A stretch of 64,000 nucleotides of DNA. Origin: an uncultured Actinomycetota bacterium. GTDB taxonomy: Bacteria; Actinomycetota; Humimicrobiia; Humimicrobiales; Humimicrobiaceae. The notes under the pieces are model-generated. The model worked only from the letters and a program-made list of their open reading frames with translations, searched no databases and was not told the DNA's origin. Where the stretch lies: the NCBI GenBank assembly GCA_964610385.1, contig CAZSXW010000001.1, positions 84,261 to 148,260 of the forward strand, in the 5' to 3' direction. How positions within the stretch are numbered: position 1 is the stretch's first letter; every line of letters begins with the position of its first letter. The position numbers were made by a program, and so were the translations under genes. Below are positions 400 through 47,840 of this stretch, in pieces.

Positions 400-1557
400 A
401 TGGCACAGGTCTATAAAAGTTCAGAAAGCTCCGACTTGTTAAAAGGTAAAATAAACGATATCCAGAACTTTTTTAAAAATACTTCATCATCTCTGGATAA
501 CAGGCCCCTGATCGGTTGGTTCTGCACTTATACTCCAGAAGAACTTATAATCGCCGGAGGATTCACCCCTTTAAGAATCATGGGGAGCAAAAAGATAACC
601 AAATCTGAAAGCTACTTCCCTATAAATTTCTGCCCCTATATAAAATCAAGCTGGGACAGTCTGCTGTCAAGAATAAATAATCTTAAAGGGCTGGTATTTA
701 CCAACTCCTGTGATGGGATGAGAAGATTGTATGACACTGCAAATACCTACCTGAAAGACATACCCCTGTACCTACTGGATGTCCCCCGGCTCCGAGGAGA
801 AGATTCTACAGTTTTTTTTCAATATAATCTTGCCGGTATGAAAAGATTTATCGAAAACACAGCCGGGGTAAAAATAAGCGATAAAGAAATAAGAAAAGCT
901 GCGGCTCTCGTAAATAAAAAAAGAGAGCTCCTGGAAAAATTCAGCCTTCTCTTCAGAAAATTTCCCCGCTATATCCGTATTTCTACCTATTACAGGATCA
1001 TGGAACTGTCTATGACATCCGAAACCAAAATCTTTGTAGACGAGCTTGATAAATATTTAAAACTAATAAAAGAATCAACAGCCAAAAATGCAACTGTCCC
1101 GGGGTCAGATGCGGAAAACATCCCTGGAATAATGATAATCGGTAATTTTATTACTGAAGATAAATTATGGGATATGCTGTCATCAATGAAACTGAGAATA
1201 TCTTCTGATGACCTTTGCATCTCAAGCAGGTACTTTAAAAATCCTGTAGATACAGACGGAAGCCAGGATATGCTTGCCTCCCTGGCCCGGAGATATTTAA
1301 GTAAGTCTCCCTGCATGAGAATGGCTGACCTGGGCTTGAAGCTTAAAGAGATTGAAAATAACATAATAAAAAACAATATAGAAGGTATAATATTTATTAG
1401 TCTGAAATTCTGTGATACAGTATTATATTTCTTTCCCCTCCTGAAAGATAGATTAAACCAAATGGGAATCCCGGTGCTGTATCTGGAAATGGAATATAAC
1501 AATTTTTCAGAAGGCCAGTTAAAGACAAGAATACAAGCTTTTTTAGAGATGCTGTAA
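400..1557 (+). CDS. 2-hydroxyacyl-CoA dehydratase family subunit (HgdB/FldC/HadC-like, beta-type)
   Basis: GWFCTYTPEELIIAGG, FCPY, NSCDGMRR, PCM and KFCD Cys motifs, C-terminal GQLKTRIQAFLEM; first of three co-oriented genes. Confidence 0.85.
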   Translation: MAQVYKSSESSDLLKGKINDIQNFFKNTSSSLDNRPLIGWFCTYTPEELIIAGGFTPLRIMGSKKITKSESYFPINFCPYIKSSWDSLLSRINNLKGLVFTNSCDGMRRLYDTANTYLKDIPLYLLDVPRLRGEDSTVFFQYNLAGMKRFIENTAGVKISDKEIRKAAALVNKKRELLEKFSLLFRKFPRYIRISTYYRIMELSMTSETKIFVDELDKYLKLIKESTAKNATVPGSDAENIPGIMIIGNFITEDKLWDMLSSMKLRISSDDLCISSRYFKNPVDTDGSQDMLASLARRYLSKSPCMRMADLGLKLKEIENNIIKNNIEGIIFISLKFCDTVLYFFPLLKDRLNQMGIPVLYLEMEYNNFSEGQLKTRIQAFLEML

Positions 1558-1574
1558 AATAGACATAAAAAAAG

Positions 1575-2864
1575 ATGGGATTAAAAGACAGATTAAAAAC
1601 AGGGATACAGAAGAACTTAAATCAGAAATACATTAAGAGGCTGTTGAGTATAATCGCTAAAAAACCCATACTTTATACCTATGGAAGCACTTTTTCCTCA
1701 GTCTCTGATAAATACCTGAACATTTTTACTATAGAAAGCCTGAGGGATGCCTATTCAGATAACAGCCATCCGTTAGGATATGGATCACTCTTTATACCAT
1801 ATGAGATGCTGCACGCGCTTGAAGTCACACCCTTTCCCCCGGAAGTAATGGCAGGCTTTACTGCAGGACTCGGCATAGCACCGCAGACTATCAAACAGTC
1901 TGCCTCAAACTGGTATTCACAGGACCTGTGTACTTTCCACAGGAGTGCCTCCGGCGCATTAGAGCTTGATGTATTTCCCAAACCTGATTTTATCCTGGTC
2001 ACCAATCTGGCCTGTGATGCCGCTCAAAAATCTTTTTACATATACTCGAAAAAATATGATATTGAAAAAAATTTCTATCTAATCGATGTTCCCTACCACT
2101 ATTCAAAAGAATCTCTGAAGTATCTTACCGGCCAGCTTAAAAGAATATATATGGATATAAGTTCAAAAACAGGCAGGAAACCTGACTACTCTAAATTCAG
2201 GGAAGTCATAAATCTTTCAAATAAATTCAGAAACTGGGCCATCAGGGTAAATAAATTAAGAATGGATCTTACAGAGTATCCCCCTTATTTTAATGCTCTA
2301 AATTACATCCTTCCCTTTCATGTACTTTCAGGAACAGAAAAGGCAGTCACTCTCTATAAGCATATATACAAGGAATTAAAAAGATACCTGGAAATACAGC
2401 AGGGGAAAAACGTAAGTAAAAAAAACAGCCCCAAAAGGATCCTGTGGCTGCATCTCAAACCATACTATAAAAGCGAGATATTTGATATTCTTAAAAAAGA
2501 AAACTGCATAGTATCCTTTGAGGAGATAAATTATGTTTACTGGCCCGAGCTTGACCCGCAAAAGCCATTTGAAAGCCTGGCCAAAAAGATGCTTTCCCAC
2601 TTCCTTGGTGGTAAGATCGACAATCGTATCAGGATGATCCTTAAACTTGCCAGGGAATATAAAATAGACGGAGCCATACTTTTTTCTCACTGGGGATGCA
2701 GACAGAGTAACGGCGGGGCAAGGATAATAAAAGACAATCTTAAGAAATTGGGTATCCCTACCCTGGCAATAGATGGAGATTGTGTGGACCGCAACAATTC
2801 ATCTCAAGGACAGATAAAGACCAGGATGCAGGGATTTTTGGAAATCTTAAACTCTAAAACATAA
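1575..2864 (+). CDS. 2-hydroxyacyl-CoA dehydratase family subunit (HgdA/FldB/HadB-like, alpha-type)
   Basis: DLCTF, TNLACD and HWGCRQ cluster ligands; C-terminal IDGDCVD...GQIKTRMQGFLE. Confidence 0.85.
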   Translation: MGLKDRLKTGIQKNLNQKYIKRLLSIIAKKPILYTYGSTFSSVSDKYLNIFTIESLRDAYSDNSHPLGYGSLFIPYEMLHALEVTPFPPEVMAGFTAGLGIAPQTIKQSASNWYSQDLCTFHRSASGALELDVFPKPDFILVTNLACDAAQKSFYIYSKKYDIEKNFYLIDVPYHYSKESLKYLTGQLKRIYMDISSKTGRKPDYSKFREVINLSNKFRNWAIRVNKLRMDLTEYPPYFNALNYILPFHVLSGTEKAVTLYKHIYKELKRYLEIQQGKNVSKKNSPKRILWLHLKPYYKSEIFDILKKENCIVSFEEINYVYWPELDPQKPFESLAKKMLSHFLGGKIDNRIRMILKLAREYKIDGAILFSHWGCRQSNGGARIIKDNLKKLGIPTLAIDGDCVDRNNSSQGQIKTRMQGFLEILNSKT

Positions 2865-2882
2865 TCGAGAGAAAGGAAACAG

Positions 2883-3656
2883 ATGTATACCTGCGGAATC
2901 GATGTTGGCTCGGTATCAACTGAAGCAGTGATACTTGATGGAAAAGATGATAAGATTTTATCTTACGCCATTGCCCCTACCGGCTCCAGCAGTAAAACTG
3001 CTGCAGAAAACGCCTTTAAAGATACTTTGAATAAAGCAAATCTTAAAAGCAAGGACATCAAAGCAATTATCGCCACAGGCTATGGTAGGATAAATATTCC
3101 CTTTGCAGATAAAAATATAACCGAGATTAGCTGCCACGCCCGGGGAGCAATATCTATATTTCCTGACCTTAAAACAGTAATCGATATCGGCGGACAGGAC
3201 AGCAAAGTCATCAAACTTGAAAACGGAAGTCCTATTGACTTTTTAATGAACGACAAATGTGCAGCCGGAACGGGGAGATTCCTGGAAGTCATGGCCAAGG
3301 CCATGGAAATAGACCTTGAGCATTTCGCTCCCATTTTCATCAAAACGGACGGAAAGGTGGATATAACATCGACCTGTACCGTATTTGCCGAATCCGAAAT
3401 AGTCTCACTTATCGGACGGGGAATAGATAAAAATAAGATTATAAAAGGACTCATTTATTCCATAGCAAACAGGATAACTTCAATGGTTGAAAGAATTGGG
3501 CTTGAAGAACCGGTTTGTATGACCGGAGGAGTGGCTAAAAATCTGGGAGTGGTAAAAGCACTAGAAGAAAAACTGGGAGTTAAAATAAATATTCCGGACG
3601 AGCCGCAGATAACCGGTGCACTTGGTGCAGCCTATCTGGCACAGAACCTGCATTAA
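2883..3656 (+). CDS. ATP-dependent [4Fe-4S] activator (archerase, HgdC/BadF-BadG-BcrA-BcrD family)
   Basis: GIDVGSVST, ATGYGR, EISCH, DIGGQDSK, MNDKCAAGTG, STCTVFAESE, GGVAKN. Confidence 0.92.
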   Translation: MYTCGIDVGSVSTEAVILDGKDDKILSYAIAPTGSSSKTAAENAFKDTLNKANLKSKDIKAIIATGYGRINIPFADKNITEISCHARGAISIFPDLKTVIDIGGQDSKVIKLENGSPIDFLMNDKCAAGTGRFLEVMAKAMEIDLEHFAPIFIKTDGKVDITSTCTVFAESEIVSLIGRGIDKNKIIKGLIYSIANRITSMVERIGLEEPVCMTGGVAKNLGVVKALEEKLGVKINIPDEPQITGALGAAYLAQNLH

Positions 3657-5481: not shown

Positions 5482-8052
5482 TCAACCAGATCGTTCACCC
5501 ATCAACTTTTTCAAATTAGAGATCTCATCTTTTCTACCGGCTATTTTGCCGTCCAGCTTCATCTTAAACAATTTTTTCAGAACATCTCCAAATTTTTCAG
5601 AAGGTTTGTACCCCATATCCTTTAATGTATTGCCATTTATTTCAAGATGTAAAGAAGAAAGGTCTGTCAGATACTTTTTGATATTTTTAAGATATTTATT
5701 TCCCCAGCTGCAGGCAATGACCTGTAATTCGGGAGGGATATTATTTACTCTGTAATAAATAGTTGAATTCTTTTTTATGATACTTTTAAGATTCCTTCTG
5801 GTATCATTCCACATTTTATAGGTCTCAAGTATTATATTTACATCTCTCTTTTTAACCTTCATCTCAGAGCACCATCTCTCAATCTTATCAGGCTTAATAC
5901 CCTTAAGAAGAAGGGTAAAAAGCAACCTCCACTTTTTAACCTCACTGCCTGTTTTATTATAATAATCTTTCATCTCGCCGTAATATTTCAATATCCTTTT
6001 AACCTGCCCTGTAAACTTTTTATCAACTTTTACTTTTATTCCTATTTTCCTAAGCGCATCAAGCTCATAAAGTCTTTCGATAGCCTCCAGAGGATTTTTT
6101 TCATTAAAAATATAAATAAGCTCATCTCTTATCCTGACACCGTTTAGTTTTGAGACTATATTCATATTTATAGTAGTCCTGGCCAGTTTTTCGGTCTGGC
6201 TGTCCATTTTAAACCCAAGCCTCTTCTCGAACCTTACTGCCCTAAAAATCCTTGTCGGATCTTCAATAAAACTCATTTTATGAAGGACCTTTATCTTCCT
6301 ATTTTTTAGATCCTCCCTTCCTCCAAAATAATCGAGGATCTCGCCAAAATTTTCTTTATTAAGAGAAACAGCCATAGTATTTATAGTAAAATCTCTTCTG
6401 GAAAGGTCCTGTTTTATATTTCCCGACTCAACGCTGGGAAGTGCTGCCGGGCTCTTATAATATTCCACTCTTGCCGAAGCTATATCTATATGCTGCCCGT
6501 CACTTAATACCAGGACAGCAGTCCCAAATTTCCGGTGGCATTCCAGTCTGCAGTCAAATCTTGAAGATAATTTTTTTCCAAATCTTATACCGTCACCCTC
6601 CACCACAATATCTATATCAAAATTAGGTATCTTTAGGATTGCATCTCTTACAATCCCTCCCACCAGATAGGTATTATATTTTAAAACCTGTGAGACACCT
6701 GAAATTATCTTTAGTATCCCTTTTACTTTTTCAGGGAAAAATCCCCAGAAATTTTCGTAACTCCGGCCATGCAAGAACCTCAATACATCTTTTCTAGTGA
6801 TAATACCTATGATCTTTTTCTTATCCGTAATGGGTACTCTTCCAATACCGTTTTCCACCATAAGATTCTGTATTTCACCGATACTGGTATTCGCATCGGC
6901 CCTTACAACACTCCGGGACTTAAAACCTTTTACGGGAGCATGCGAAAGACCATGGCCTATTGCCTTATCTATATCCTTCCTCGTTATTATACCTACCAGG
7001 TTTTCAGTATTATCTACAATGGGTATCCCCGAATGACCGTACTTTTTCAAGATTTTATCTACCTGAGCTATGCTGGCATCCTCCTTTACCACCCTTACCG
7101 GATAAGACATCACATCCCTTGCCAGCATCGGCCTTTTTATATGCTTTTTAAGGGATCCTATCAGCTTTTTTTCTACTTCTTTAAAAGCTATATCGTTTAC
7201 AACTGCAGAAGCTGCCTGAGGGTGTCCACCGCCCCCTACCGCTTCCAATATCTCGGACACATCAACATTTTTATTATCACTTCTGCCGACTGCGTAAATC
7301 TTCCCTTTCATTTTAGCCCAGCATATAACTATACTTATATCTTCGATCTGGGATAATTTCCTGGTCAGCACAGAAAGCCCTTCAACAAAATCAGGCATTT
7401 CTGCCTGAGAAAGCAGGATCTCAGTTTCATTTACATTTATCTTTTTACAGTTCATTATCAACTTCTCCAAAAGTCTGTGCTGGTCTTCAGTAAGTGAAAG
7501 ATTTAAAAATTTTGATACCACGAATAAATTGGCCCCTTTCTCCATAAGAAAGGCGGCTGCTTCAAGATCACTGGAGGTAGTGCCCGGATAAGTAAATGAG
7601 CCTGTGTCCTCGTATATGCCAAGGGTAAAGAGTGTTGCATCAAGTGGAGTGATACTGATCTTTTTTTCTTTAATAAGATTTACCAGAATAGATGTAGCAG
7701 CTCCCACCTCCCTTGAATAATCACGGGTTGCTTTCAGATCTCTGGAAGTCTTCTGATGATGGTCGTAAACTACAACCTCGATACCCTTATTATCCAGTGC
7801 CACTTTAGCCGGACCAAGCCTTGATGCAAACTTGGTATCGATTACTATGGCTCTTTTTATCTTTGAAAAATCAATACTCTTGGGGTCCAAAAGGGATGGA
7901 AGCTCATCTTCATAAAGGGTGATAAACTTTCTTACGTTTTGATTTATTGCGGTAGGAAGTACGATTTGAGCCCGTTTGTATATTTTCTTAGCCGCTACCA
8001 TTCCAGCAAAAGAATCAAAATCAGAGCTCAAATGGGTTATAATTATTTCCAT
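5482..8052 (-). CDS. Multidomain tRNA nucleotidyltransferase (DHH/DHHA1 + 2xCBS + class II NTase), CCA- or A-adding
   Basis: THLSSDFDS and YDHH (DHH), GGGGHPQAASA (DHHA1), CBS pair, then VGGIVRD, DIDIVV, RRDFTIN, EDPTRIFRAVRF. Confidence 0.9.
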   Translation of the reverse strand: MEIIITHLSSDFDSFAGMVAAKKIYKRAQIVLPTAINQNVRKFITLYEDELPSLLDPKSIDFSKIKRAIVIDTKFASRLGPAKVALDNKGIEVVVYDHHQKTSRDLKATRDYSREVGAATSILVNLIKEKKISITPLDATLFTLGIYEDTGSFTYPGTTSSDLEAAAFLMEKGANLFVVSKFLNLSLTEDQHRLLEKLIMNCKKINVNETEILLSQAEMPDFVEGLSVLTRKLSQIEDISIVICWAKMKGKIYAVGRSDNKNVDVSEILEAVGGGGHPQAASAVVNDIAFKEVEKKLIGSLKKHIKRPMLARDVMSYPVRVVKEDASIAQVDKILKKYGHSGIPIVDNTENLVGIITRKDIDKAIGHGLSHAPVKGFKSRSVVRADANTSIGEIQNLMVENGIGRVPITDKKKIIGIITRKDVLRFLHGRSYENFWGFFPEKVKGILKIISGVSQVLKYNTYLVGGIVRDAILKIPNFDIDIVVEGDGIRFGKKLSSRFDCRLECHRKFGTAVLVLSDGQHIDIASARVEYYKSPAALPSVESGNIKQDLSRRDFTINTMAVSLNKENFGEILDYFGGREDLKNRKIKVLHKMSFIEDPTRIFRAVRFEKRLGFKMDSQTEKLARTTINMNIVSKLNGVRIRDELIYIFNEKNPLEAIERLYELDALRKIGIKVKVDKKFTGQVKRILKYYGEMKDYYNKTGSEVKKWRLLFTLLLKGIKPDKIERWCSEMKVKKRDVNIILETYKMWNDTRRNLKSIIKKNSTIYYRVNNIPPELQVIACSWGNKYLKNIKKYLTDLSSLHLEINGNTLKDMGYKPSEKFGDVLKKLFKMKLDGKIAGRKDEISNLKKLMGERSG

Positions 8053-29174: not shown

Positions 29175-30266
29175 TCAGGCTTGAGTTCTTTTAATCTTTC
29201 CTGCAATTGCATCAGCAAACTCATCTGTACCTACAGCCGTAGGATCATCCCTGTCGGGCTTCAGATCATAGGTCACATATTTTCCTTCTCTTATATTTTC
29301 CGCAATTGCATTTTCTAGAAGGTCAGCGTGCTCTTTCTCTCCTATGTATTTAAGCATCAATACTGCTGAAAGCATCATTGCAGTGGGATTTACCTTGTTC
29401 TGCCCTTTATATTTTGGAGCGCTGCCGTGTGTCGGCTCGAACAATGCGATATCTTTGCCTATGTTTCCACCGGGAGCGACACCCAGGCCTCCAACCAATC
29501 CAGCAGCAAGGTCAGAAATTATATCTCCATATAGATTTGGCAGGACTATGACATCATAAAGCTCCGGTTTCTGTACCAGCTGCATGCACATATTGTCTAT
29601 GATTCTATCTTCTGATTCTATATCATTATATTCTGACGCAATCTTTTTAAAAATTTCAAGAAACAAGCCGTCGGAATATTTCATTATATTTGCCTTGTGA
29701 ACTCCAGTTACCTTTTTACGGTTATTTTTACGGGCATATTCGAATGCAAATCTGATTATATCTTCCGAAGCGGTAATAGAAATCGGCTTTATGCTTATGC
29801 CGCTGTCGCTTCTTATCCCCTGGCCCTTCTTTTCTTTCACAAAATCAATAAGCTCTTTTGTTTCAGCTTTTCCTTTCTCAAACTCTATTCCTGAATAGAG
29901 GTCTTCTGTATTTTCCCTGATTATTACAAGGTCTATATCATCGTATCTACTCTTGACGCCCAGGTAACTTTTACACGGTCTTACACATGCATATAGATTG
30001 AATAATTTTCTCATAGCCACGTTAACACTTCTAAAACCTACTCCCACAGGAGTGGTTATAGGTCCTTTTATCCCTACCCTGTTTTTCTTAAGGGAGCTTA
30101 TGACACTTTCGGGGAGGACCGTACCCTCTTTTTCATAGATTTCCGCTCCGGCATTGACAACATCCCACTTTATATCAACTCCGGTCGCCTCAACCACTTT
30201 AACCATTGCCCTGGTTATTTCCGGCCCTATGCCATCTCCAGGTATCAGCGTTATGCTATGTTTCAT
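29175..30266 (-). CDS. Isocitrate/homoisocitrate/isopropylmalate dehydrogenase family, ICDH-like substrate loop
   Basis: [16 protein letters not shown]...[37 protein letters not shown]. Confidence 0.88.
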
Positions 30267-30784
30267 AGATTAAACCCTTTATTTTTAGCAATATGTTTGA
30301 TAAGCCCCCCATCACTTAAGATCTTTATCATTACTTCAGGCAGAGGATTGAATTCTAACTTCAGATTACCTGTCTTGTTATTGATTATCCCTTTCTTTAA
30401 ATCTATCTCCAATATATCCCCATTTTCGATCTTATCAGTATTACATATCAGAACCGGTAATCCTATGTTAATACTGTTCCTGAAAAATATACGGGCAAAG
30501 GACTTGGCAAGCACCGCTCCCACACCAGCTTCTTTTATTACTGTAGGAGCATGTTCCCTGCTCGAGCCGAGACCGAAATTTCTTCCTCCCACCACGAAAT
30601 CACCGGGCTTCACTTTTTTTATAAAATCAGGATCGGCGTCTTCAAGGGTATGCTTTGCAAGTTCAGTTATATCGGACCTCAAATGAAAATATCTTCCTGG
30701 AATGATCAAATCGGTTGAAATATCATCGCCAAATTTAAAACTTTTTCCCACAAGGATATTGGATTTCTTACCTTTTGCCGCCAT
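30263..30784 (-). CDS. 3-isopropylmalate dehydratase/homoaconitase small subunit (LeuD/HacB-type); start refined
   Basis: [38 protein letters not shown]; TAATG coupling with the large subunit. Confidence 0.9.
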
Positions 30785-32040
30785 TATCCCAAAACCTCCC
30801 TTGGATCTGCGATATAACCTTTCACAGCGCTCCATGCAGCCGTTGCAGGAGAAGACAGATAGATGAATGACTTTGGATTCCCCATTCTCCCTTTAAAATT
30901 CCGATTCTGAGTAGTAAGGCATACCTCTCCGTCACCCAGCACTCCCTGATGCACGCCTACACATGGACCGCACCCCGGAGATTGTATTACTGCTCCGCTG
31001 TCTATAAATGTCTTTATGACTCCCTTATCAAGAGCTTCAATGTAGGTGCGTTTCGAAGCCGGGACTACAATAAGTCTCACACCATCCGCCACTTTTTTAT
31101 CCTTGAGGATATCTGCCGCAATTTTTAGATCACTGAAACGTCCATTGGTACATGTCCCTATAAATACCTGGTCTACAGTGACTTTCTCCAGGTTGCTTAC
31201 AGGTAAAGCATTATCTACAGCATGAGGTTGTGATACCATTGGCTCGATGACCGAACAATCTATATCTATGACCTTCTCATATTTTGCTCCCTTATCAGCC
31301 GTGATTTTTCTGAAGCAACCCTTTCTGCCCTGGCTTTCCAGATATATTTCCGTTATCTCGTCGGAAGGGAAAATACCTGCTTTTGCCCCTGCTTCCACCG
31401 CCATGTTTGAAATAGTGAATCTATCATCTATGCCCAGCCTGGACCCTACCTCGCCGCCGAATTCAAGAGCTTTATAAGTCGCCCCGTCAGAAGTGATTTT
31501 TCCTATCAAATAGATTATTAAGTCTTTGGAAAACACTCCTTTATTTATCTTCCTGTTGAAATTCACTTTAATGGTATCAGGTACCATAAGCCATGTCTTA
31601 GCCAGTATATAACCTACTGCAATATCTGTAGAGCCCATTCCGGTAGAAAAAGCTCCTAAAGCGCCTGAAGTGCAGGTATGTGAATCCGCTCCTATAACTA
31701 TATCGCCCGGACAGGTATAATCTTCCACCAGCAGCTGGTGGCAGATTCCCTCTCCTATATCTCTTAATATTGCTCCCGTTCTGGCAGCAAAATTTCTCAT
31801 AACTATATGAGCATTTGAAAGCTCCTTTTTGGGACTTGGTGCAGCATGATCAATAAAAAAAATTGACTTATCGGGCTTTCTCACCATATCGAAACCTATT
31901 TTTTTAGCCTGGCTTACCGCCAGGGGTCCTGTACCATCATGGGACATGACCACATCAACGTCCACAACTGCAATATCTCCAGCAGCAAGTTCTTTATGGG
32001 CATGCTCGCTTATAATCTTTTCTGAAATTGTCTTTCTCAA
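30784..32040 (-). CDS. 3-isopropylmalate dehydratase/homoaconitase large subunit (LeuC/HacA-type)
   Basis: DH, GICHQ, GADSHTCT, IGTCTNGR, CGPCVG, NRNFKGRMG; TTG start with RBS gaggag. Confidence 0.92.
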   Translation of the reverse strand: MRKTISEKIISEHAHKELAAGDIAVVDVDVVMSHDGTGPLAVSQAKKIGFDMVRKPDKSIFFIDHAAPSPKKELSNAHIVMRNFAARTGAILRDIGEGICHQLLVEDYTCPGDIVIGADSHTCTSGALGAFSTGMGSTDIAVGYILAKTWLMVPDTIKVNFNRKINKGVFSKDLIIYLIGKITSDGATYKALEFGGEVGSRLGIDDRFTISNMAVEAGAKAGIFPSDEITEIYLESQGRKGCFRKITADKGAKYEKVIDIDCSVIEPMVSQPHAVDNALPVSNLEKVTVDQVFIGTCTNGRFSDLKIAADILKDKKVADGVRLIVVPASKRTYIEALDKGVIKTFIDSGAVIQSPGCGPCVGVHQGVLGDGEVCLTTQNRNFKGRMGNPKSFIYLSSPATAAWSAVKGYIADPREVLG

Positions 32041-32051
32041 AAGAGACTCCT

Positions 32052-33206
32052 CTAATTTTGGTTTTTCTTTTTTTTCTTATAATTATTATAGATATACATA
32101 AGTTCCTTATCAAAAAGCGGTCTTTTCAGATCTACCGACATATCTCTTGACAGTCCCAGTATATCATTGGCCTGCTTGTCAGTAAGCTCTATGTCAAATT
32201 CTTTAAACTTATGCAGGATAGTATGAGAACCGGAATGTTTACCAACGACCAACTGCCTGGTCAGCCCCACTTCACTCGGTTTAAATACTTCATAATTTTT
32301 GGGATTTTTGATTACCCCATCCGCATGTATACCCGATTCATGTGCAAATATGTTTGTTCCAACGATTGCCTTCCAGACAGGAATAGCCCTGGACGAAGCT
32401 CTGGAAACATATTCAGCTATTTCTCTGAATTTTGAAGTCTTTATACTCAGTTCTATATTCTCGAGATACTTCAATGCCATTACTATCTCCTCAAAGGCCG
32501 CATTTCCTGTCCCTTCGCCCAATCCACCCACGCTGACTACCAGGCTGGATGCACCTCCTCTTATTGCCGCTATTCCGTTAGCAGTTGCCATGCCGAAATC
32601 ATTATGATTATAAACTTCCAGAGGAAAATCAACAGCACTGACTATAGTGTTTATCAGAAGGAAAGTCCTGAAGGGATCAAACTTACTCACAGTATCACAG
32701 ATCCTAAACCTATACGCACCTTTCTTTCTTGCAATAGAAATAAGCTTTAACAAGAATTCAAGGTCAGCACGAGTAGCATCCTCAGCACTTACTATGAAAT
32801 TAAGATCATTCTGCCTGGCAGCTCTTATGGTCTTTTTCAGTTTGTTTATAACCCAGGTCCTGCTTTTCCTGTATTTTTCTTTGAGATGTATATCTGAAGT
32901 AGATATATTTATAATCACATTTTTAACTCCGCATTGAGCTGCTAACCTTATATTCTCGGGTTCAGCCTCACAGTAGGCAAATATCTTGCATTTAAATTTA
33001 TCTTTCATTATTTCTGTGATTATCTCCCTTTCTATCTTCCCCAGTGAAGGAGTGCCCACTTCAATTTCAGGAACACCTATTTCATCCAGCATTTTGGCTA
33101 TTCTTATTTTTTCGTTTTTGGAAAAAACTACTCCTGCTGTCTGTTCACCATTCCTTAAAGTTGTATCTATGATATTTATATGTCTTTCACTTTTTACTTC
33201 TTCCAT
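32052..33206 (-). CDS. Homocitrate/Re-citrate synthase-like paralogue B (degenerate metal site, intact C-terminal HESGIH lid); start refined
   Basis: DTTLRNGEQ, EVYNHNDFG, GGLGEGTGN, FAHESGIHADG, GKHSG; RBS ggagg before ATG 33206. Confidence 0.85.
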   Translation of the reverse strand: MEEVKSERHINIIDTTLRNGEQTAGVVFSKNEKIRIAKMLDEIGVPEIEVGTPSLGKIEREIITEIMKDKFKCKIFAYCEAEPENIRLAAQCGVKNVIINISTSDIHLKEKYRKSRTWVINKLKKTIRAARQNDLNFIVSAEDATRADLEFLLKLISIARKKGAYRFRICDTVSKFDPFRTFLLINTIVSAVDFPLEVYNHNDFGMATANGIAAIRGGASSLVVSVGGLGEGTGNAAFEEIVMALKYLENIELSIKTSKFREIAEYVSRASSRAIPVWKAIVGTNIFAHESGIHADGVIKNPKNYEVFKPSEVGLTRQLVVGKHSGSHTILHKFKEFDIELTDKQANDILGLSRDMSVDLKRPLFDKELMYIYNNYKKKKKNQN

Positions 33207-34422
33207 CTTTTCCTCCATTTTTATGTACCCTGCTGCCAGTCGATTTTTTCTTGTATGATTTATAAGTATCAACGATCTCATTATCAAAAAGAGCCCTTTT
33301 AAGGGATACTGTTTTACCCCTTATTATTTCAGCCAGTTCTTCCGCCTCTTTCCTGGTTACCTTAAATCCAAGATCCTTCATCTTATAGATTATAGCATTG
33401 ACTCCTGAATACTTGCCTAGTATTATACTCCTCTCCAGGCCTACATCTTTTTCATCGAATAACTCATAAGTTTTAGTATTATTCAATATGCCCGATGCTT
33501 TACTCTCGCTTTCATAAACAAACAATTTACCTCCTACTATCGGCTTCCAGGTAGGAAGGATCCTGTTGGAGGCTTTTGCTACATATTCAGACAGTGACCT
33601 GAAGTGTGCAGTGTTAAAGCCCATATCAACTCCCTCTATATATTTTAAAGCCATAACCAATTCTTCAAAGGCAGCATTGCCTGCTCTCTCACCTAGTCCA
33701 TTAATAGTGGTATTGACATAGGTAGCTCCTGCTTTGATCCCGGCAATAGCATTGGCAATAGCCATTCCGAAATCATTATGGGTATGCATCTCGACATCTA
33801 TTCCGATTATATCAATAATGTCTTTTACCCTTATGAAAGTCTCGAAAGGATCGAGGATACCCAGAGTATCGCAATACCTTAATCTATCAGCACCGGTGTC
33901 TCTTGCCGTTCGTGCAAATTGAAGAAGGAATTCCATATCAGACCTTGAAGCGTCTTCAGCATTCACCGATACATAGAGATTGAATCCCTTGGCATAATCT
34001 ACACAGGTCTTTATGCTTTCCAGAACCCACTCCCTGCTCTTCATAAGCTTGTGTTCAATATGTATATCTGAAGATGATATTGAAATAGCCACTGCATCTA
34101 CGCCGCAATCTATTGAAGCATCTATATCCGATTTTACCGCCCTGTTCCAGCCCAGTACACTACAGTTAAGGTCAAGAGAAGCGATCTTTTTTATAGCTTC
34201 CTTTTCATTTCCTCCCATTGTGGGTATACCGGCCTCAATCTGGTGTACTCCTATTTTATCCAGCATCTTAGCGATATATACTTTTTCATCATTTGCAAAC
34301 ACCACACCTGCGGTTTGTTCCCCGTCTCTTAATGTAGTATCATCAATTTTTATATTCTTTGGGTCAAGTTCTGTACCCGCTTTCTGTGAAAACTCGGTAA
34401 GTAAATTAAGTTCTCTCATCAT
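33187..34422 (-). CDS. Homocitrate/Re-citrate synthase-like paralogue A (intact barrel, degenerate lid)
   Basis: DTTLRDGEQ, HTHNDFG, NGLGERAGN, but FVYESESK in place of FAHESGIH. Confidence 0.88.
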   Translation of the reverse strand: MMRELNLLTEFSQKAGTELDPKNIKIDDTTLRDGEQTAGVVFANDEKVYIAKMLDKIGVHQIEAGIPTMGGNEKEAIKKIASLDLNCSVLGWNRAVKSDIDASIDCGVDAVAISISSSDIHIEHKLMKSREWVLESIKTCVDYAKGFNLYVSVNAEDASRSDMEFLLQFARTARDTGADRLRYCDTLGILDPFETFIRVKDIIDIIGIDVEMHTHNDFGMAIANAIAGIKAGATYVNTTINGLGERAGNAAFEELVMALKYIEGVDMGFNTAHFRSLSEYVAKASNRILPTWKPIVGGKLFVYESESKASGILNNTKTYELFDEKDVGLERSIILGKYSGVNAIIYKMKDLGFKVTRKEAEELAEIIRGKTVSLKRALFDNEIVDTYKSYKKKSTGSRVHKNGGKDGRSKK

Positions 34423-34708: not shown

Positions 34709-35110
34709 ATGATAAGTATTATTAGTAAACCAAAAAACCGTACAGCCAGAACGATTATATGGATCGCGCGTATACTGGGTTCCATAGCCGGAGCTTTCTG
34801 GGCACTGAGTCTTATTATAAGCACCATACAGGAAATTGGCATGCCCATAACAACCAGAGTCATGATCGAGGGACTAATCCTCACAGGCCTGATAGCAGTT
34901 ATTTTGGCCGGTATTATTGTCGCATGGCGGAATGAAAAAATAGGGGGGATAATAACAACTGTAGCAGCTGCCGCGCTGTGCATTTTCTCTTATATTGATG
35001 CCGGTCATAATAAAATATTTGCTGTGATGATCTCGGGTTTCCCGTTCCTGGTATCGGGCGCATTGTTTTTAACAGGATGGTGGATTTCAAAAACTATCGA
35101 TGTGAAATAG
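34709..35110 (+). CDS. Hypothetical 4-TM membrane protein
   Basis: Four hydrophobic segments, WR.E..GG loop; no family recognised with confidence. Confidence 0.6.
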   Translation: MISIISKPKNRTARTIIWIARILGSIAGAFWALSLIISTIQEIGMPITTRVMIEGLILTGLIAVILAGIIVAWRNEKIGGIITTVAAAALCIFSYIDAGHNKIFAVMISGFPFLVSGALFLTGWWISKTIDVK

Positions 35111-43217: not shown

Positions 43218-44108
43218 ATGAACAATAAAAAAACTACTGTTATACCAGTTATCAGCATCCAGGGTCAGAACTGCACCGGCTGTGTCACTTCAATCCTGTG
43301 CTCCGAATTTCCAGCAATCAAAAATGTACTGCTGCAGGATATAATACCAGGTTTCAAGCTTGATTTCGTATTCCATCCCAATATCATGACTGCAAGCGGA
43401 AACCGTGCCATGGAAATACTTGAAAACTCTTCAAAGGAAAAGGGCTATGTCTTGATCATTGACGGTGCTATCCCCACCAATGACAATGGAGTCCACTGCG
43501 TCACAGGTGAAAAGGACGGTAAAAAATATACCATACTGGAAGAGACTTTAAAACTGGCACCTGATGCACTTATGGTAATCGCTCTGGGGACATGCGCGGC
43601 ATTCGGCGGAATTGCAGCCGCAAACCCGAATCCGACAGGAGCACAAAGTGTGGGAGACATCTTACAAGCCAACAAGATCAAAACTCCACTTATAAACATC
43701 CCCGGCTGTCCTCCTCATCCGGACTGGCTTTTCGGCACTATAGAGGAAGTGCTGGTAAAAGGATTGGAAAATGTACAGCTGGATGATTTAAAAAGGCCAA
43801 AGACTTTTTACGGACAGCTGATCCACGAAAATTGCCCCAACAGAGCTTATTTCGATGAAGGTAAATTTGCCAAAAAATTAGGGGATGAAGGGTGCCTTTA
43901 TGAACTGGGATGCAAGGGGTCCATAACCTATGCCGACTGCCCCAAAAGACAATGGAACAGCAAAACCAACTGGGTCATCGGATGCGGAGCTCCATGCAGC
44001 GGCTGTACATCGCCCGAATACCCGGATCTTTTGGGAGATCTCTATGAAAAGATCATTGACGTAGAAGTCCCTGTTAATAAGAAAAAGACCGGGATCCAAA
44101 AAAAATAA
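43218..44108 (+). CDS. [NiFe]-hydrogenase small subunit without Tat leader
   Basis: CTGC, GTCAAFGG, GCPPHP (proximal); HENC...CLYELGCKG (distal); DC...PCSGC (medial); RBS aaggag; no RRxFxK. Confidence 0.92.
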   Translation: MNNKKTTVIPVISIQGQNCTGCVTSILCSEFPAIKNVLLQDIIPGFKLDFVFHPNIMTASGNRAMEILENSSKEKGYVLIIDGAIPTNDNGVHCVTGEKDGKKYTILEETLKLAPDALMVIALGTCAAFGGIAAANPNPTGAQSVGDILQANKIKTPLINIPGCPPHPDWLFGTIEEVLVKGLENVQLDDLKRPKTFYGQLIHENCPNRAYFDEGKFAKKLGDEGCLYELGCKGSITYADCPKRQWNSKTNWVIGCGAPCSGCTSPEYPDLLGDLYEKIIDVEVPVNKKKTGIQKK

Positions 44109-44129
44109 TTATTTTAGAAAGGTGAAATC

Positions 44130-45680
44130 GTGAAAAAAATCGTAATACACCCCATAACCAGAATTGAAGGCCATTTAAAAGTAGAAGCCGTGGTGGACAA
44201 TGGCGAAATAAAAGATGCCAGTATAAGCGGTACCATGTTCAGAGGTATAGAAATAATGTTAAAGGGCAGAGACCCCAGGGATGCGGTTATGATCACTCAG
44301 AGAATATGCGGTGTATGCCCGGAGCCTCATGCCATAGCATCAGTCAGTGCAGTAGAAGAATATGCGGGACTCAAAGACAAGATCCCCGTAAATGGGATTC
44401 TTTTAAGAAACCTGATCCTTGGTACCAGAAGTATTGCCGACCATATACTGCATTTCTATATTCTAAGCGGGCTGGATTATATAGACCCGGCACAGGTCAT
44501 GGAATATAACGGTGCAAATCAAGATTTAAACACTCTAAAATTTTTTCTCCAACAGGGATATTCAAAACCATTTCTCCCCAGAGATGAAATAGACTACAGA
44601 CTTGATACAAAAACCACAAATATTGTAGTAGGCCATTATATCAAAGCAATGGATGTCTATAGAAAAGCACAGCAGGCAGCCACTCTTTTCGGCGGAAAAT
44701 GGCCCCACGACGCTGCTGTCGTGTCCGGTGGCGTATCGCAGCGGCTTACAGCCGACAGGATTACTGAATTTATATGGAGACTGGAAGAGATAGCAGATTT
44801 TGTCAAAAATTATTATCTGCCTGATGTCATTGCAGTAGCTAAGGCTTACAATGATTATCTCGAGATAGGAAAAGGGTGCAGCAACCTGCTGGCATATGAT
44901 TCATACCAGACCAGTTCCAACGGCAAGTACAATGACTATCTTTTTAAAGGCGGTCTGATAAATAATATCGATAAATACAGTAAAATAAACATAGATAATA
45001 TAACTGAAGATATTACCCACAGCTGGTATCAGGAGTCCGAACCCCTATATCCGGGCGAAGGAAAGACCGAGCCGACAGCAGATAAAAAAAAGGCGTACTC
45101 ATGGGTAAAATCTCCAAGATATGGCAGCATGGTTTATGAAGTAGGGCCTCTGGCAAGCGTCCTTACCACTTATTTTGGAAAAAAAGATCCCCATATTAAA
45201 AATATGGTCGACAGTTCACTATCCGAAATAGGTACAGACGTTTCCAGTATGTACTCAGTAGCAGGAAGACATCTTGCCAGGGTACTTTCTGCGAATATAT
45301 TAGCGGACCAGCTGTCAGTATGGGCGCGTGAACTTAAAGTGGAAGAACCTACCACAGTAGAATATAATCCACCTTCTGATGGGAAAGGTATTGGGCTCTG
45401 TGCAGCACCGAGAGGAGCTCTGGGGCACTGGCTGAATGTAGAAGACGGCAGGATTTCAAACTACCAGGTGATTACTCCCACTGCATGGAATGCATCTCCA
45501 AAGGATAAAGACGGACAGCCCGGCCCCTATGAGCAGGCATTAATAGGTATCAAAGTAAAGGAAAGTCAAAGTCCTGTAGAAATTTTAAGAGTCATCAGAA
45601 GCTTTGACCCCTGTACCGCATGTGCGGTGCATCTTGTTACATCAAAGAAAGACTTAATAGGTAAATATAAAGTAGTCTGA
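44130..45680 (+). CDS. [NiFe]-hydrogenase large subunit (group 1-like, Cys not Sec)
   Basis: PITRIEGH, L1 QRICGVC, APRGALGHW, L2 DPCTACAVH plus a 15-aa cleavable tail. Confidence 0.95.
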   Translation: MKKIVIHPITRIEGHLKVEAVVDNGEIKDASISGTMFRGIEIMLKGRDPRDAVMITQRICGVCPEPHAIASVSAVEEYAGLKDKIPVNGILLRNLILGTRSIADHILHFYILSGLDYIDPAQVMEYNGANQDLNTLKFFLQQGYSKPFLPRDEIDYRLDTKTTNIVVGHYIKAMDVYRKAQQAATLFGGKWPHDAAVVSGGVSQRLTADRITEFIWRLEEIADFVKNYYLPDVIAVAKAYNDYLEIGKGCSNLLAYDSYQTSSNGKYNDYLFKGGLINNIDKYSKINIDNITEDITHSWYQESEPLYPGEGKTEPTADKKKAYSWVKSPRYGSMVYEVGPLASVLTTYFGKKDPHIKNMVDSSLSEIGTDVSSMYSVAGRHLARVLSANILADQLSVWARELKVEEPTTVEYNPPSDGKGIGLCAAPRGALGHWLNVEDGRISNYQVITPTAWNASPKDKDGQPGPYEQALIGIKVKESQSPVEILRVIRSFDPCTACAVHLVTSKKDLIGKYKVV

Positions 45681-45710
45681 AAATTTAAAAAAGCTTTTGC
45701 AGGAGGATTT

Positions 45711-46388
45711 ATGATATTAACTGAATTTAAACCGTTAGAGGAACTGATTGAGAAACTGGAAGGTGAGAAAAAGATATTCATCATGGGCTGCGGCGGCTGC
45801 CCCGAAGGTGCGGATACCGGCGGAAAAGAAGTGCTGGCAGATTTTAAAGAAAAACTTGAAAAAGAAGGAAAAACTGTCACCGGAGTAATGGAAATTGACT
45901 TTCTGTGTCAGAAAGCGCTGATACGATCCAGGATAAAACCAAGATCTTCCCAGCTAAATGATTCAGATTCTGTACTGGTGTTCTCATGCGGGATCGGAGT
46001 CCAGGCAGTATCAGCAGTCATAGACAAGACCTGTCACCCCGCCCTGAACACAACTACTTTCGGAGGCATAACCGGAATGTGGCAGGGTACCGAAAGATGC
46101 GACACTTGCAGCGACTGCATACTGGACTACACCGGCGGAATATGTCCTTACACAGCCTGTCCTAAAAAATTGTTGAACGGCGCCTGCGCTGGACAGAGTA
46201 ATGATAAATGCGAGACAGATCCGGAAAGAGAATGCGGATGGGTTCAGATCTACAACAGTTTGAAAAGAACAGGAAACCTGAACAGGTTACAAAAGTTTAT
46301 ACCTCCCAGAGATTATACAAAAAAATTGCCCCCATCAGCTTTAAGAAAAAGCAGACTATGGGCACTTGACGAGGAGGATGCGGTATGA
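45711..46388 (+). CDS. metV: Methylene-THF reductase Fe-S subunit (MetV-like)
   Basis: GCGGC, DFLC, SCGIGVQ and C-terminal RCDTCSDC...GGICPYTACPKKLLNGAC...KC...ECGW Cys cluster. Confidence 0.88.
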   Translation: MILTEFKPLEELIEKLEGEKKIFIMGCGGCPEGADTGGKEVLADFKEKLEKEGKTVTGVMEIDFLCQKALIRSRIKPRSSQLNDSDSVLVFSCGIGVQAVSAVIDKTCHPALNTTTFGGITGMWQGTERCDTCSDCILDYTGGICPYTACPKKLLNGACAGQSNDKCETDPERECGWVQIYNSLKRTGNLNRLQKFIPPRDYTKKLPPSALRKSRLWALDEEDAV

Positions 46389-47287
46389 CTACAGAAAAAA
46401 TAAAAGAATCAAAATTTGAGAAAACACTGAACAGCGGAAAATTTGCAGTCACCTGTGAAATAGGCCCTCCTAAAGGTGCAGAGATCGAAGAAATCGAAGA
46501 GGCAGCAGAATATTTAAGAGATGTTGCAGATGGGATAAATATAACAGACCTACAGAGTTCTGTAATGAGGCTGGGATCTCTTACCACCTGTTACTTTATA
46601 AAACAAATGGGTCTGGATCCTATATTTCAGATAACATGCAGAGACAGGAACAGGCTGGCACTGCAGTCCGATCTCTTAAGCGCCAGCGTATTAGGAATAA
46701 GAAATGTACTGGCTCTTACCGGCGACTACACCACTATCGGCGATCATCCACAAGCTGAACCCGTATTCGATCTTGACTCGGTTCAACTCCTATGGGCCAT
46801 TAAAAAATTGGAAGAAGGATTTGACCTTTCAGAAAAGGAACTCACCCAAAAACCTTCCTTTTTTAAGGGTGCGGTAGTAAATCCAGGTGCGGATACAGAA
46901 GCATCTTACGAACTTCAGATAATAAAAATGAAGAAGAAAATAGACCAGGGAGCACAGTTTTTCCAGACCCAGGCAATATATGATGCTGAGGTTTTTAAAA
47001 GGTTCATGGAAAGGATACGCAGTGAAAACATCGATATCCCAGTCCTGGCAGGAATAATTCTATTAAAATCCGAGAAAATGGCCAATTATATGAACAAATT
47101 CGTACCGGGTGTGTTTGTACCGGAATCAATAATAAAAAAGATGGAATCGACTGATGACAAGGTCTCTATGTGCATAGAAATCGCATCCGGACTCATAGAG
47201 GAAGTAAAGCCATATTGTGCCGGAGTTCATATTCAGGCTCTGGGGTGGGAAAAACATGTACCTGCGGTAGTCAAAGACATTAGATAA
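46385..47287 (+). CDS. metF: Methylenetetrahydrofolate reductase catalytic subunit
   Basis: VTCEIGPPKG, INITD, ITCRDRNR, LALTGD, FFQTQ; ATGA overlap with metV. Confidence 0.92.
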   Translation: MTTEKIKESKFEKTLNSGKFAVTCEIGPPKGAEIEEIEEAAEYLRDVADGINITDLQSSVMRLGSLTTCYFIKQMGLDPIFQITCRDRNRLALQSDLLSASVLGIRNVLALTGDYTTIGDHPQAEPVFDLDSVQLLWAIKKLEEGFDLSEKELTQKPSFFKGAVVNPGADTEASYELQIIKMKKKIDQGAQFFQTQAIYDAEVFKRFMERIRSENIDIPVLAGIILLKSEKMANYMNKFVPGVFVPESIIKKMESTDDKVSMCIEIASGLIEEVKPYCAGVHIQALGWEKHVPAVVKDIR

Positions 47288-47291
47288 CACA

Positions 47292-47840
47292 GTGAAAAAT
47301 CCAAAAAACATCAAAACTGTAATACTAGGTATCGGTAATATTCTGCTTGGAGATGAAGGTGTAGGAGTTCACACCGTTAAAGTACTCCAAAAAGAAAAGC
47401 TTCCTCCTGATGTGCTGGTAATAGACGGTTCAACTGCAGGATTCAGGTTGTTTCCAATATTTGATGAATATAAAAAAAGCAGATTCATAATAATCGATGC
47501 CCTTAGAATAGAAAAATCTTCAGAAGAGACTTCCCAAATTAAAAATAAAAAATCTTCTTCCCATGAAGGTATATTTGTCATACCCCTGGACGATTTTTAC
47601 CATACAGGCGGTTTTAATCATCCGGGTGAAGGTCTTATCTCATTTCATCAGACTTCACTGATTGACGTGCTGAATTTATATTATCTAGCATATAAGGTAA
47701 AAATCAGGGGATATTTGATCGGTATTGATATATCCGAAAGTATAGACGGCGGCCTACCATTTTCTATGAATCTATCCCGCAAAATAGAACAAAAGATTCC
47801 CACCATCATTGATCTAATTAAAAAACATATAAACCCGTAA
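47292..47840 (+). CDS. Hydrogenase maturation endopeptidase (HyaD/HybD family)
   Basis: LGIGNILLGDEGVG, IDG, IIIDA, SFHQ. Confidence 0.88.
   Translation: MKNPKNIKTVILGIGNILLGDEGVGVHTVKVLQKEKLPPDVLVIDGSTAGFRLFPIFDEYKKSRFIIIDALRIEKSSEETSQIKNKKSSSHEGIFVIPLDDFYHTGGFNHPGEGLISFHQTSLIDVLNLYYLAYKVKIRGYLIGIDISESIDGGLPFSMNLSRKIEQKIPTIIDLIKKHINP

Follow-up and report, generated by a model that had tools for sequence, protein, structure and literature searches.

Can two adjacent paralogues, each of which has lost a different part of the catalytic apparatus of its family, together make up a single working enzyme? This question is raised by two genes, here termed A and B, on contig CAZSXW010000001.1 of an uncultured Actinomycetota bacterium, which lie within a stretch of 64,000 nucleotides that we refer to as the window. 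Both encode relatives of homocitrate synthase (HCS). The analyses described below lead us to propose, with a probability of roughly three in four, that the products of A and B assemble into one single-site heterodimer, a Claisen-condensing enzyme that belongs with the homocitrate, isopropylmalate and Re-citrate synthases, where the physical association of A with B, the presence of one site per dimer and the identity of the substrate are what we infer from sequence.

Complementary losses in two adjacent paralogues

Gene A (33187–34422, minus strand, 411 residues) and gene B (32052–33206, minus strand) both code for an HMGL-like TIM barrel (PF00682) together with an HCS_D2 domain (PF22617), and the two proteins are 46% identical across 363 residues without gaps. 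The best PDB matches of A and B are homocitrate and isopropylmalate synthases, the closest solved structures being homocitrate synthases (E = 4e-70 and 1e-64), and Foldseek confirmed the fold, with TM-scores of 0.72–0.79 to 6KTQ and 3IVS. Fold and domains thus place the pair in the DRE-TIM metallolyases, with the Claisen-condensing homocitrate, isopropylmalate and citramalate synthases. Both open reading frames lie where an earlier interpretation of this DNA, made from the letters alone (the sequence-only reading), had placed them without naming a strand, and all of the motifs that it quoted are present.

Gene B encodes 384 residues if translated from the ATG at 33206, and 388 if translated from the ATG at 33218. 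The former, which had been the start chosen previously, is the better of the two because a GGAGG (33216–33212) sits 5 nt upstream of it. With the B start codon at 33206–33204 and the TGA of A at 33189–33187, the two genes overlap by 20 nt at this junction (33187–33216, minus strand), an arrangement that suggests translational coupling of A and B. Residue numbers in the B motifs that follow are counted from the ATG at 33218, and all of the motifs lie on the minus strand.

A combines a fully canonical barrel with a degenerate C-terminal lid. The TTLRDGEQ motif (residues 29–36; 34315–34338) retains Arg32 and the metal ligand Asp33, HTHNDFGMA (residues 213–221; 33760–33786) retains both His metal ligands, and NGLGERAGN (residues 241–249; 33676–33702) is likewise intact. 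The A lid reads FVYESESKASG (residues 301–311; 33490–33522), which differs from the FAHESGIHADG of single-gene relatives by H303Y, G306E, I307S, H308K and D310S; its lid Tyr is Y319, and the GKHSG of the family is replaced by GKYSG (residues 336–340; 33403–33417), with a Tyr instead of His338. In B, it is the barrel that has lost metal ligands, along with many conserved positions. Asn23 stands in place of the metal-ligand Asp in TTLRNGEQ (residues 19–26; 33141–33164), Tyr203 in place of the first His ligand in YNHNDFGMA (residues 203–211; 32586–32612), and GGLGEGTGN (residues 231–239; 32502–32528) has exchanged Asn for Gly231 and an invariant Arg for Gly236. The C-terminal subdomain of B is fully canonical, from the FAHESGIHADG lid (residues 291–301), which includes His298, through Tyr309 (together 32283–32348) to GKHSG (residues 326–330; 32229–32243), which in this family is the acetyl-CoA region. 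A complete metal site (Asp/Glu after the conserved Arg, HxH, and the Asn of NGxGER) is therefore found in A and not in B, whereas the lid His and Tyr (HxxGxH...Y) and GKHSG are found in B and not in A (Y..E.K...Y; GKYSG), and the two proteins together carry each of these features exactly once.

Dimers in this family are domain-swapped: the catalytic barrel of each chain is capped by the post-barrel accessory domain of its partner, and it is in this accessory domain that subdomain I, with its His and Tyr, is found (PMC9860122). In yeast HCS, the active-site segment Ala312–Tyr320 is supplied in this way by the other subunit, contributing Tyr320* (PMC8276798). In our pair, counting back 11 positions from the lid Tyr leads to His298 in B and to Lys308 in A, in line with the count made in the sequence-only reading, and alignment with S. 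pombe HCS (3IVS) agrees, placing B His298 at the second His of HKAGIH. The catalytic pair of HCS consists of His309/His321 and a barrel Glu, and B His298 is the counterpart of His309 in yeast HCS and His321 in S. pombe.

Conservation of the pattern across relatives and the order of losses

Uncultured Actinomycetota are the source of the closest relatives of A and B; where named, these are Ca. Humimicrobiaceae and Ca. Calidifonticultor, both of which belong to the class Ca. Humimicrobiia, and one relative at 80% identity has the same neighbourhood in the same gene order. Taking the best 120 90%-identity clusters for each protein, we found TTLRDGEQ, H[TA]H and NGLGERAGN to be kept in 120/120 A-type clusters, and the lid and GKHSG in 120/120 B-type clusters, in which the barrel motifs nearly always read RN (or RS), YNH and GEG. 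The HxH of A is invariant in all 120 clusters, whereas the second His ligand varies (H, Q or K) among close relatives of B. The reciprocal loss that the sequence-only reading had described for one pair is thus conserved in homologous pairs, across every A-type and essentially every B-type cluster.

We extended this analysis with a B-lineage profile, run against a single genome from each GTDB species, and scored every family member in the 80 loci returned. All loci beyond the window come from metagenome-assembled genomes (MAGs) or metagenomes, in which occasional mis-binning is possible. In 54 loci, one of which is a metagenome contig, there is a single canonical gene with RDGE, HTH, NGLGERAGN, FAHESGIHADG, the lid Tyr and GKHSG in one chain; these loci belong to Clostridia, Thermoleophilia, Dictyoglomota and Ca. 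Aquicultoria, among others. Ten loci (L004, L025–31, L062 and L075), from Thermoleophilia, Anaerolineae/Chloroflexota and other Actinomycetota MAGs, possess an intermediate tandem pair in which the A lid is dead (FVYE.E.R.., GKYSG) and B has kept both its metal ligands and its lid. The reciprocal tandem pair, in which the A lid and the B barrel are both dead, was found in 19 further loci, in one of which (L018) the A gene is cut off by the contig end. The fully dead B barrel is limited to the class Ca. Humimicrobiia, where its ligands follow three patterns (RN/YNH/GGLGEG, RS/HTK/NGLAEG and RN/YTK). In 28 GTDB or metagenome loci, A and B were always adjacent, in the order A then B.

One contig in this set (L023), labelled Candidatus Omnitrophota, carries an A/B pair with 85% identity to the B of the window, and is probably a mis-binned Humimicrobiia contig. 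Four 50%-identity representatives with degenerate barrels or lids, P0377 (L003), P0284 (L090/L091), P0372 (L087/L088) and P0246 (L089), were considered as further pairs and ruled out, as they are stand-alone genes in unrelated contexts; P0246 is flanked by genes for a succinyl-CoA ligase alpha subunit on one side and a Si-type citrate synthase on the other, and P0372 is near PrpD-like and aminotransferase genes.

The complementarity of A and B was quantified by an unbiased column scan. It covered the 168 alignment columns in which the 54 single-gene proteins show at least 93% conservation, of which 124 lie in the barrel and 44 in the C-terminal region. In Humimicrobiia, A has lost 4 of the 124 barrel columns and 15 of the 44 C-terminal columns (Fisher p = 4e-7), and B has lost 39/124 and 0/44 (p = 2e-6). 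For the intermediate lineages, the corresponding figures are 1/124 and 12/44 for A (p = 3e-7), and 27/124 and 0/44 for B (p = 2e-4). The reciprocal loss from barrel and C-terminal region is far beyond chance, and it extends past the motifs visible by eye: the losses in A include H303Y, G306E, H308K/R, Q332K/R, H338Y and K381x, and those in B include the substrate-pocket changes W82Y/F, N83C, S142I/V/T and N144S.

The modules also differ in rate. Within the same 19 genomes, the mean pairwise identity of the barrel is 0.87 in A and 0.73 in B, as against 0.65 in A and 0.91 in B for the first C-terminal subdomain, and 0.65 and 0.80 for the second; this asymmetry runs in the same direction in the 10 intermediate-state genomes. 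The ratio of nonsynonymous to synonymous substitution rates (dN/dS) is 0.02–0.12 for both genes in 11 orthologue pairs, synonymous sites being saturated in a twelfth, and both A and B are under strong purifying selection.

In a neighbour-joining tree (a simple distance tree), the A clade and the B clade are each monophyletic and branch as mirror images of one another, and the dead-barrel B proteins make up a single subclade. This topology implies one ancient duplication, with loss of the A lid before the lineages split and decay of the B barrel later, in the Humimicrobiia stem. The B changes common to that stem are D23N/S, R84E and R236G, and the erosion of the His ligands is lineage-specific and later. 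Under this scheme, a lidless A would have become dependent on B after the duplication, a stage that survives in Thermoleophilia, Anaerolineae and other MAGs; the B barrel, by then useless, would have shed Asp23, Arg84 and Arg236 in the Humimicrobiia ancestor, and the His ligands afterwards, lineage by lineage. The sequence-only reading had spoken of subfunctionalisation after duplication. Of this, a duplication with complementary losses stands, although the losses appear not to have been symmetric and in one step, the A lid having gone first and the B barrel later. The B proteins of the intermediate pairs, with their metal ligands intact, have a differing substrate pocket that is conserved among them (Phe82, Cys83, Val/Thr142 and Ser144, in B numbering), and might form B:B homodimers with a second substrate specificity.

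A predicted single-site heterodimer, its substrate and the alternatives

In the enzyme that we propose, the working site would be formed by the A barrel (Arg32/Asp33, His213/His215 and Asn241, with Trp92/Asn93/Ser152/Asn154 as the pocket), and would be closed by the C-terminal subdomain of B, which would bring in His293, His298, Tyr309 and His328. An A:A dimer would have two metal sites and no catalytic lid, a Humimicrobiia B:B dimer would have lids and no metal site, and A:B alone would have one complete site. The half-site made up of the B barrel and the A lid would be catalytically dead and retained as scaffold; because the barrels and swapped subdomains form the dimer, neither the B barrel nor the A lid could be deleted. 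We also considered a lid that acts in cis, and rejected it: both proteins would then be dead, yet the complementary modules are the most constrained. Since a cis lid is incompatible with the constraint seen on the A barrel and the B C-terminal region, a single-site heterodimer appears to be the best explanation for the pair. The earlier proposal that the A barrel and the B lid would form the only working site of an obligate heterodimer, arisen by duplication, is strongly supported by the comparative data: the column scan, the module rates, the dN/dS values, gene adjacency, the mirror-image trees and the existence of an intermediate state all agree with it.

Several observations weigh against the heterodimer. 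AlphaFold2 monomer models have a predicted local distance difference test score (pLDDT) above 90 in the barrels of both A and B and below 50 in both lid regions, and at this low confidence do not discriminate. The lid residues Tyr/Phe303, Glu306, Lys/Arg308 and Tyr338 of A are themselves conserved, not random, which points to some constraint on the A lid that the heterodimer model would explain only as structural contact. Furthermore, the B barrel is still strongly conserved as a domain, with invariant residues of its own.

The sequence-only reading had added that the dead B barrel may act as an allosteric or regulatory pocket, and the conserved residues of the dead half-site raise the possibility that it now serves in allostery or ligand sensing. 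Residues that are newly conserved throughout the lineage are found both in the B barrel (Glu51, Tyr82, Cys83, Glu84, Asn100, Tyr116 and Ile142) and in the A lid (Tyr303, Glu306, Lys/Arg308 and Tyr338), and may reflect either a tightened contact between A lid and B barrel or a new ligand site. NAD-isocitrate dehydrogenases, moreover, have a regulatory paralogous subunit, and their paralogous subunits appear as separate chains among the PDB matches of the dehydrogenase discussed below. We nevertheless consider a sensing role doubtful: the conservation is equally explained by a folded scaffold with a tight contact between the A lid and the B barrel, no ligand-binding signature was identified, support for the B barrel as a pocket goes no further than its conservation as a fold, and the His positions drift (YNH/HTK/YTK/YNQ), a sign of constraint that has been relaxed, not newly imposed, at the old metal site. 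Just as tentative is a more elaborate scenario, in which the single-site heterodimer would have been fixed by a two-step ratchet with all of its stages extant, the dead half-site, with the B barrel under the remodelled Tyr/Glu/Lys lid of A, would have taken on another function (such as allosteric control by a metabolite of the tricarboxylic acid cycle or of amino-acid metabolism), and the intermediate B:B dimers would perhaps have a second specificity.

What would such an enzyme make? A and B head a tight five-gene operon on the minus strand, A-B-AcnL-AcnS-IDH, in which IDH denotes isocitrate dehydrogenase. An aconitase/homoaconitase-family large subunit (30784–32040, minus strand) begins 11 nt past the B stop, and is accompanied by an aconitase-family small subunit of the LeuD/HacB type (30263–30787, minus strand) and by an isocitrate-dehydrogenase-like member of the isocitrate/isopropylmalate dehydrogenase family (29175–30266, minus strand), whose gene shares 4 nt with that of the small subunit. 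In the PDB, the 32 best matches of this dehydrogenase are all isocitrate dehydrogenases, an assignment also favoured by NCBIfam, with homoisocitrate dehydrogenases appearing only from E = 7e-68, and both these and isopropylmalate dehydrogenases giving much weaker matches. In most related loci, an aconitase, either split or fused, comes after the pair or single gene, usually with an IDH-type gene next. The Clostridium single-gene orthologues adjoin a fused aconitase and IDH, in the same order as in the Clostridium acetobutylicum cluster CA_C0970–0972, the products of which were purified and identified biochemically as Re-citrate synthase, aconitase and NADH-isocitrate dehydrogenase (PMC4669385). 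A scan of the operon for promoter and terminator consensus sequences was uninformative; the DNA is AT-rich.

The substrate pocket was compared with that of S. pombe HCS, in which His103 and Arg163 are the residues that hold the distal carboxylate of 2-oxoglutarate. At the equivalent positions, A has Trp92 and Ser152, the 54 single-gene relatives without exception have Trp and Ser, and B has Tyr82 and Ile142. Because of the aconitase/IDH context, the likeness to the C. acetobutylicum cluster and the Trp/Ser at the HCS carboxylate positions, we think it rather probable that the pair is a Re-citrate synthase feeding 2-oxoglutarate synthesis, instead of a homocitrate synthase. The enzyme would condense acetyl-CoA with oxaloacetate to give citrate, which aconitase and isocitrate dehydrogenase would then convert to 2-oxoglutarate. 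The sequence-only reading had described the genes as homocitrate-synthase-like; the operon context points to oxaloacetate as the likely substrate, and not to 2-oxoglutarate.

It is unlikely, though conceivable, that the heterodimer is real and is instead a true homocitrate synthase, which would act with a homoaconitase and a homoisocitrate dehydrogenase to yield 2-oxoadipate in a chain elongation of the lysine or coenzyme B type. Several points weigh on that side and against oxaloacetate. TIGR02660, the NifV homocitrate synthase model, is the best NCBIfam match of both proteins, with A just above its cut-off of 462.9 bits (464.8) and B at 450.3; the large and small subunits score well with Hac family models; databases name all of these proteins homocitrate synthase, as is always the case for the Clostridium single-gene relatives, which are 50–57% identical to B and A; and the assignment to Re-citrate synthase leans on synteny and a genus-level link to the characterised clostridial enzyme. 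Homocitrate synthesis is nevertheless hard to reconcile with a dehydrogenase whose nearest matches, in the PDB and in NCBIfam, are isocitrate dehydrogenases, with Clostridium orthologues set next to aconitase and IDH as in the proven C. acetobutylicum cluster, or with Trp and Ser at the positions of S. pombe His103 and Arg163; in addition, no nif genes were seen in the open reading frame list of the 64-kb window or among the annotated genes.

A different division of labour, in which A would be a self-sufficient homodimeric synthase by virtue of a remodelled lid (Tyr303/Glu306/Lys308) and B a separate, non-catalytic regulator or chaperone-like pseudoenzyme, could draw on the complete barrel kept in A and on lid substitutions that are consistent across lineages and not random. 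We regard this as very unlikely, since it leaves unexplained why the C-terminal subdomain of B is the slowest of the four modules (0.91 identity), why B has kept 44/44 conserved C-terminal positions, including a catalytic lid that its own barrel cannot use, and why the barrel ligands of B have decayed only in lineages with A. Finally, that B is merely a decaying duplicate, an incipient pseudogene without function, as the loss of several metal ligands and 39/124 conserved barrel positions might suggest, is rejected on the selection data, since dN/dS is 0.04–0.12, the reading frame is unbroken in all loci, over 120 clusters exist at 75–98% identity and 44/44 C-terminal positions are kept; the relaxed selection or frameshifts that the sequence-only reading had regarded as marks of a decaying copy are not seen.

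Elsewhere in the window, a small DUF7670 membrane protein (34709–35110, plus strand) is encoded upstream of gene A on the opposite strand, an arrangement that recurs in the 80%-identity relative (L001, 6097–6486). The region 43218–47840 (plus strand) codes for the small and large subunits of a NiFe hydrogenase. Directly after these come a protein resembling the C-terminal part of methylenetetrahydrofolate reductase (PF12225), then a methylenetetrahydrofolate reductase (PF02219) and what is probably a hydrogenase maturation protease, which places the hydrogenase in one physical cluster with a Wood-Ljungdahl-type reductase. At 400–3656 (plus strand) lie genes for two HGD-D type 2-hydroxyacyl-CoA dehydratase subunits and a BcrAD/BadFG-family activator ATPase, and at 5482–8052 (minus strand) a gene for an 856-residue protein in which DHH-DHHA1 and two CBS domains are fused with a poly(A) polymerase/CCA-adding head domain.

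Significance and comparison with known systems

To our knowledge, isopropylmalate, citramalate, homocitrate and Re-citrate synthases have been described as homodimers with two equivalent composite sites, and we found no description of a natural heteromeric homocitrate, isopropylmalate or Re-citrate synthase in the searchable literature, which covers few subscription papers. If our reading is true, a natural one-site heterodimer would represent a quaternary structure new to this family, and an unusually clean bacterial case of a domain-swapped homodimer that became an obligate heteromer by complementary loss after duplication. Since single-gene, half-degenerate and fully degenerate states are all found in sequenced lineages, the order of events could be tested with extant proteins, and ideas about the interdependence of paralogues, such as constructive neutral evolution and duplication-degeneration-complementation, would become directly testable. 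In addition, annotation of the pair as two 'homocitrate synthases' would mislead the metabolic reconstruction of Humimicrobiia, Thermoleophilia and Anaerolineae, in which it probably supplies 2-oxoglutarate.

Among known enzymes, Re-citrate synthase (CitA, CA_C0970, of C. acetobutylicum, and the enzymes of C. kluyveri, Dehalococcoides and Syntrophus) belongs to the same family, with an HMGL-like barrel and HCS_D2, and in clostridia shares the neighbourhood of synthase, aconitase and isocitrate dehydrogenase. The A barrel and the B C-terminal subdomain jointly carry every position conserved in single-gene relatives. However, known Re-citrate synthases are the product of one gene, with all motifs in one chain, whereas in A and B the catalytic residues are divided between full-length paralogues. 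Homocitrate synthases (S. pombe Lys4, 3IVS; T. thermophilus, 2ZTJ; S. acidocaldarius, 6KTQ; and NifV, TIGR02660) include the closest solved structures, and are likewise domain-swapped with the lid supplied in trans; they differ in being homodimers with a His103/Arg163 pocket, where A has Trp/Ser, and the context of A and B is one of aconitase and IDH genes and not of nif or lysine genes.

The sequence-only reading had cited nifV-omega/nifV-alpha of Clostridium pasteurianum as a precedent. This was reportedly described by Wang et al. in 1991 as a split gene, whose two parts are the N-terminal and C-terminal portions of one NifV. It does offer two adjacent genes of the family that need to act jointly, but as a precedent it is weaker than was stated, as A and B are each full-length with both domains.

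Conceptual parallels, besides the NAD-isocitrate dehydrogenases with their regulatory paralogous subunits, are the trypanosomatid deoxyhypusine synthase DHSc/DHSp and AdoMetDC/prozyme, which depend for their activity on pairing with a paralogue that is itself catalytically deficient (PMC3663545, PMC5201418). The two trypanosomatid enzymes are likewise duplicated oligomers with sites at a shared interface, though they come from eukaryotic parasites and combine one impaired with one dead subunit, whereas A and B are bacterial, with losses that are reciprocal by module and with a surviving intermediate stage. In heterodimeric ABC exporters, two composite sites span the interface, and complementary changes after duplication have left one consensus site and one degenerate site, the latter of which still binds ATP and has a regulatory role. 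The likeness lies in the combination of a consensus with a degenerate composite site; fold and chemistry are unrelated, and for the degenerate half-site of A and B a regulatory role would be conjectural.

Within the superfamily to which A and B belong, the yeast isopropylmalate synthases Leu4 and Leu9 form hetero-oligomers in which both paralogues are catalytically complete. Engineered heterodimers of NmeIPMS, from the same superfamily, demonstrate that differently mutated chains can form mixed domain-swapped dimers (PMC9860122). These NmeIPMS heterodimers are artificial; A and B are natural paralogues, neither of them complete alone, both under purifying selection, and inherited together.

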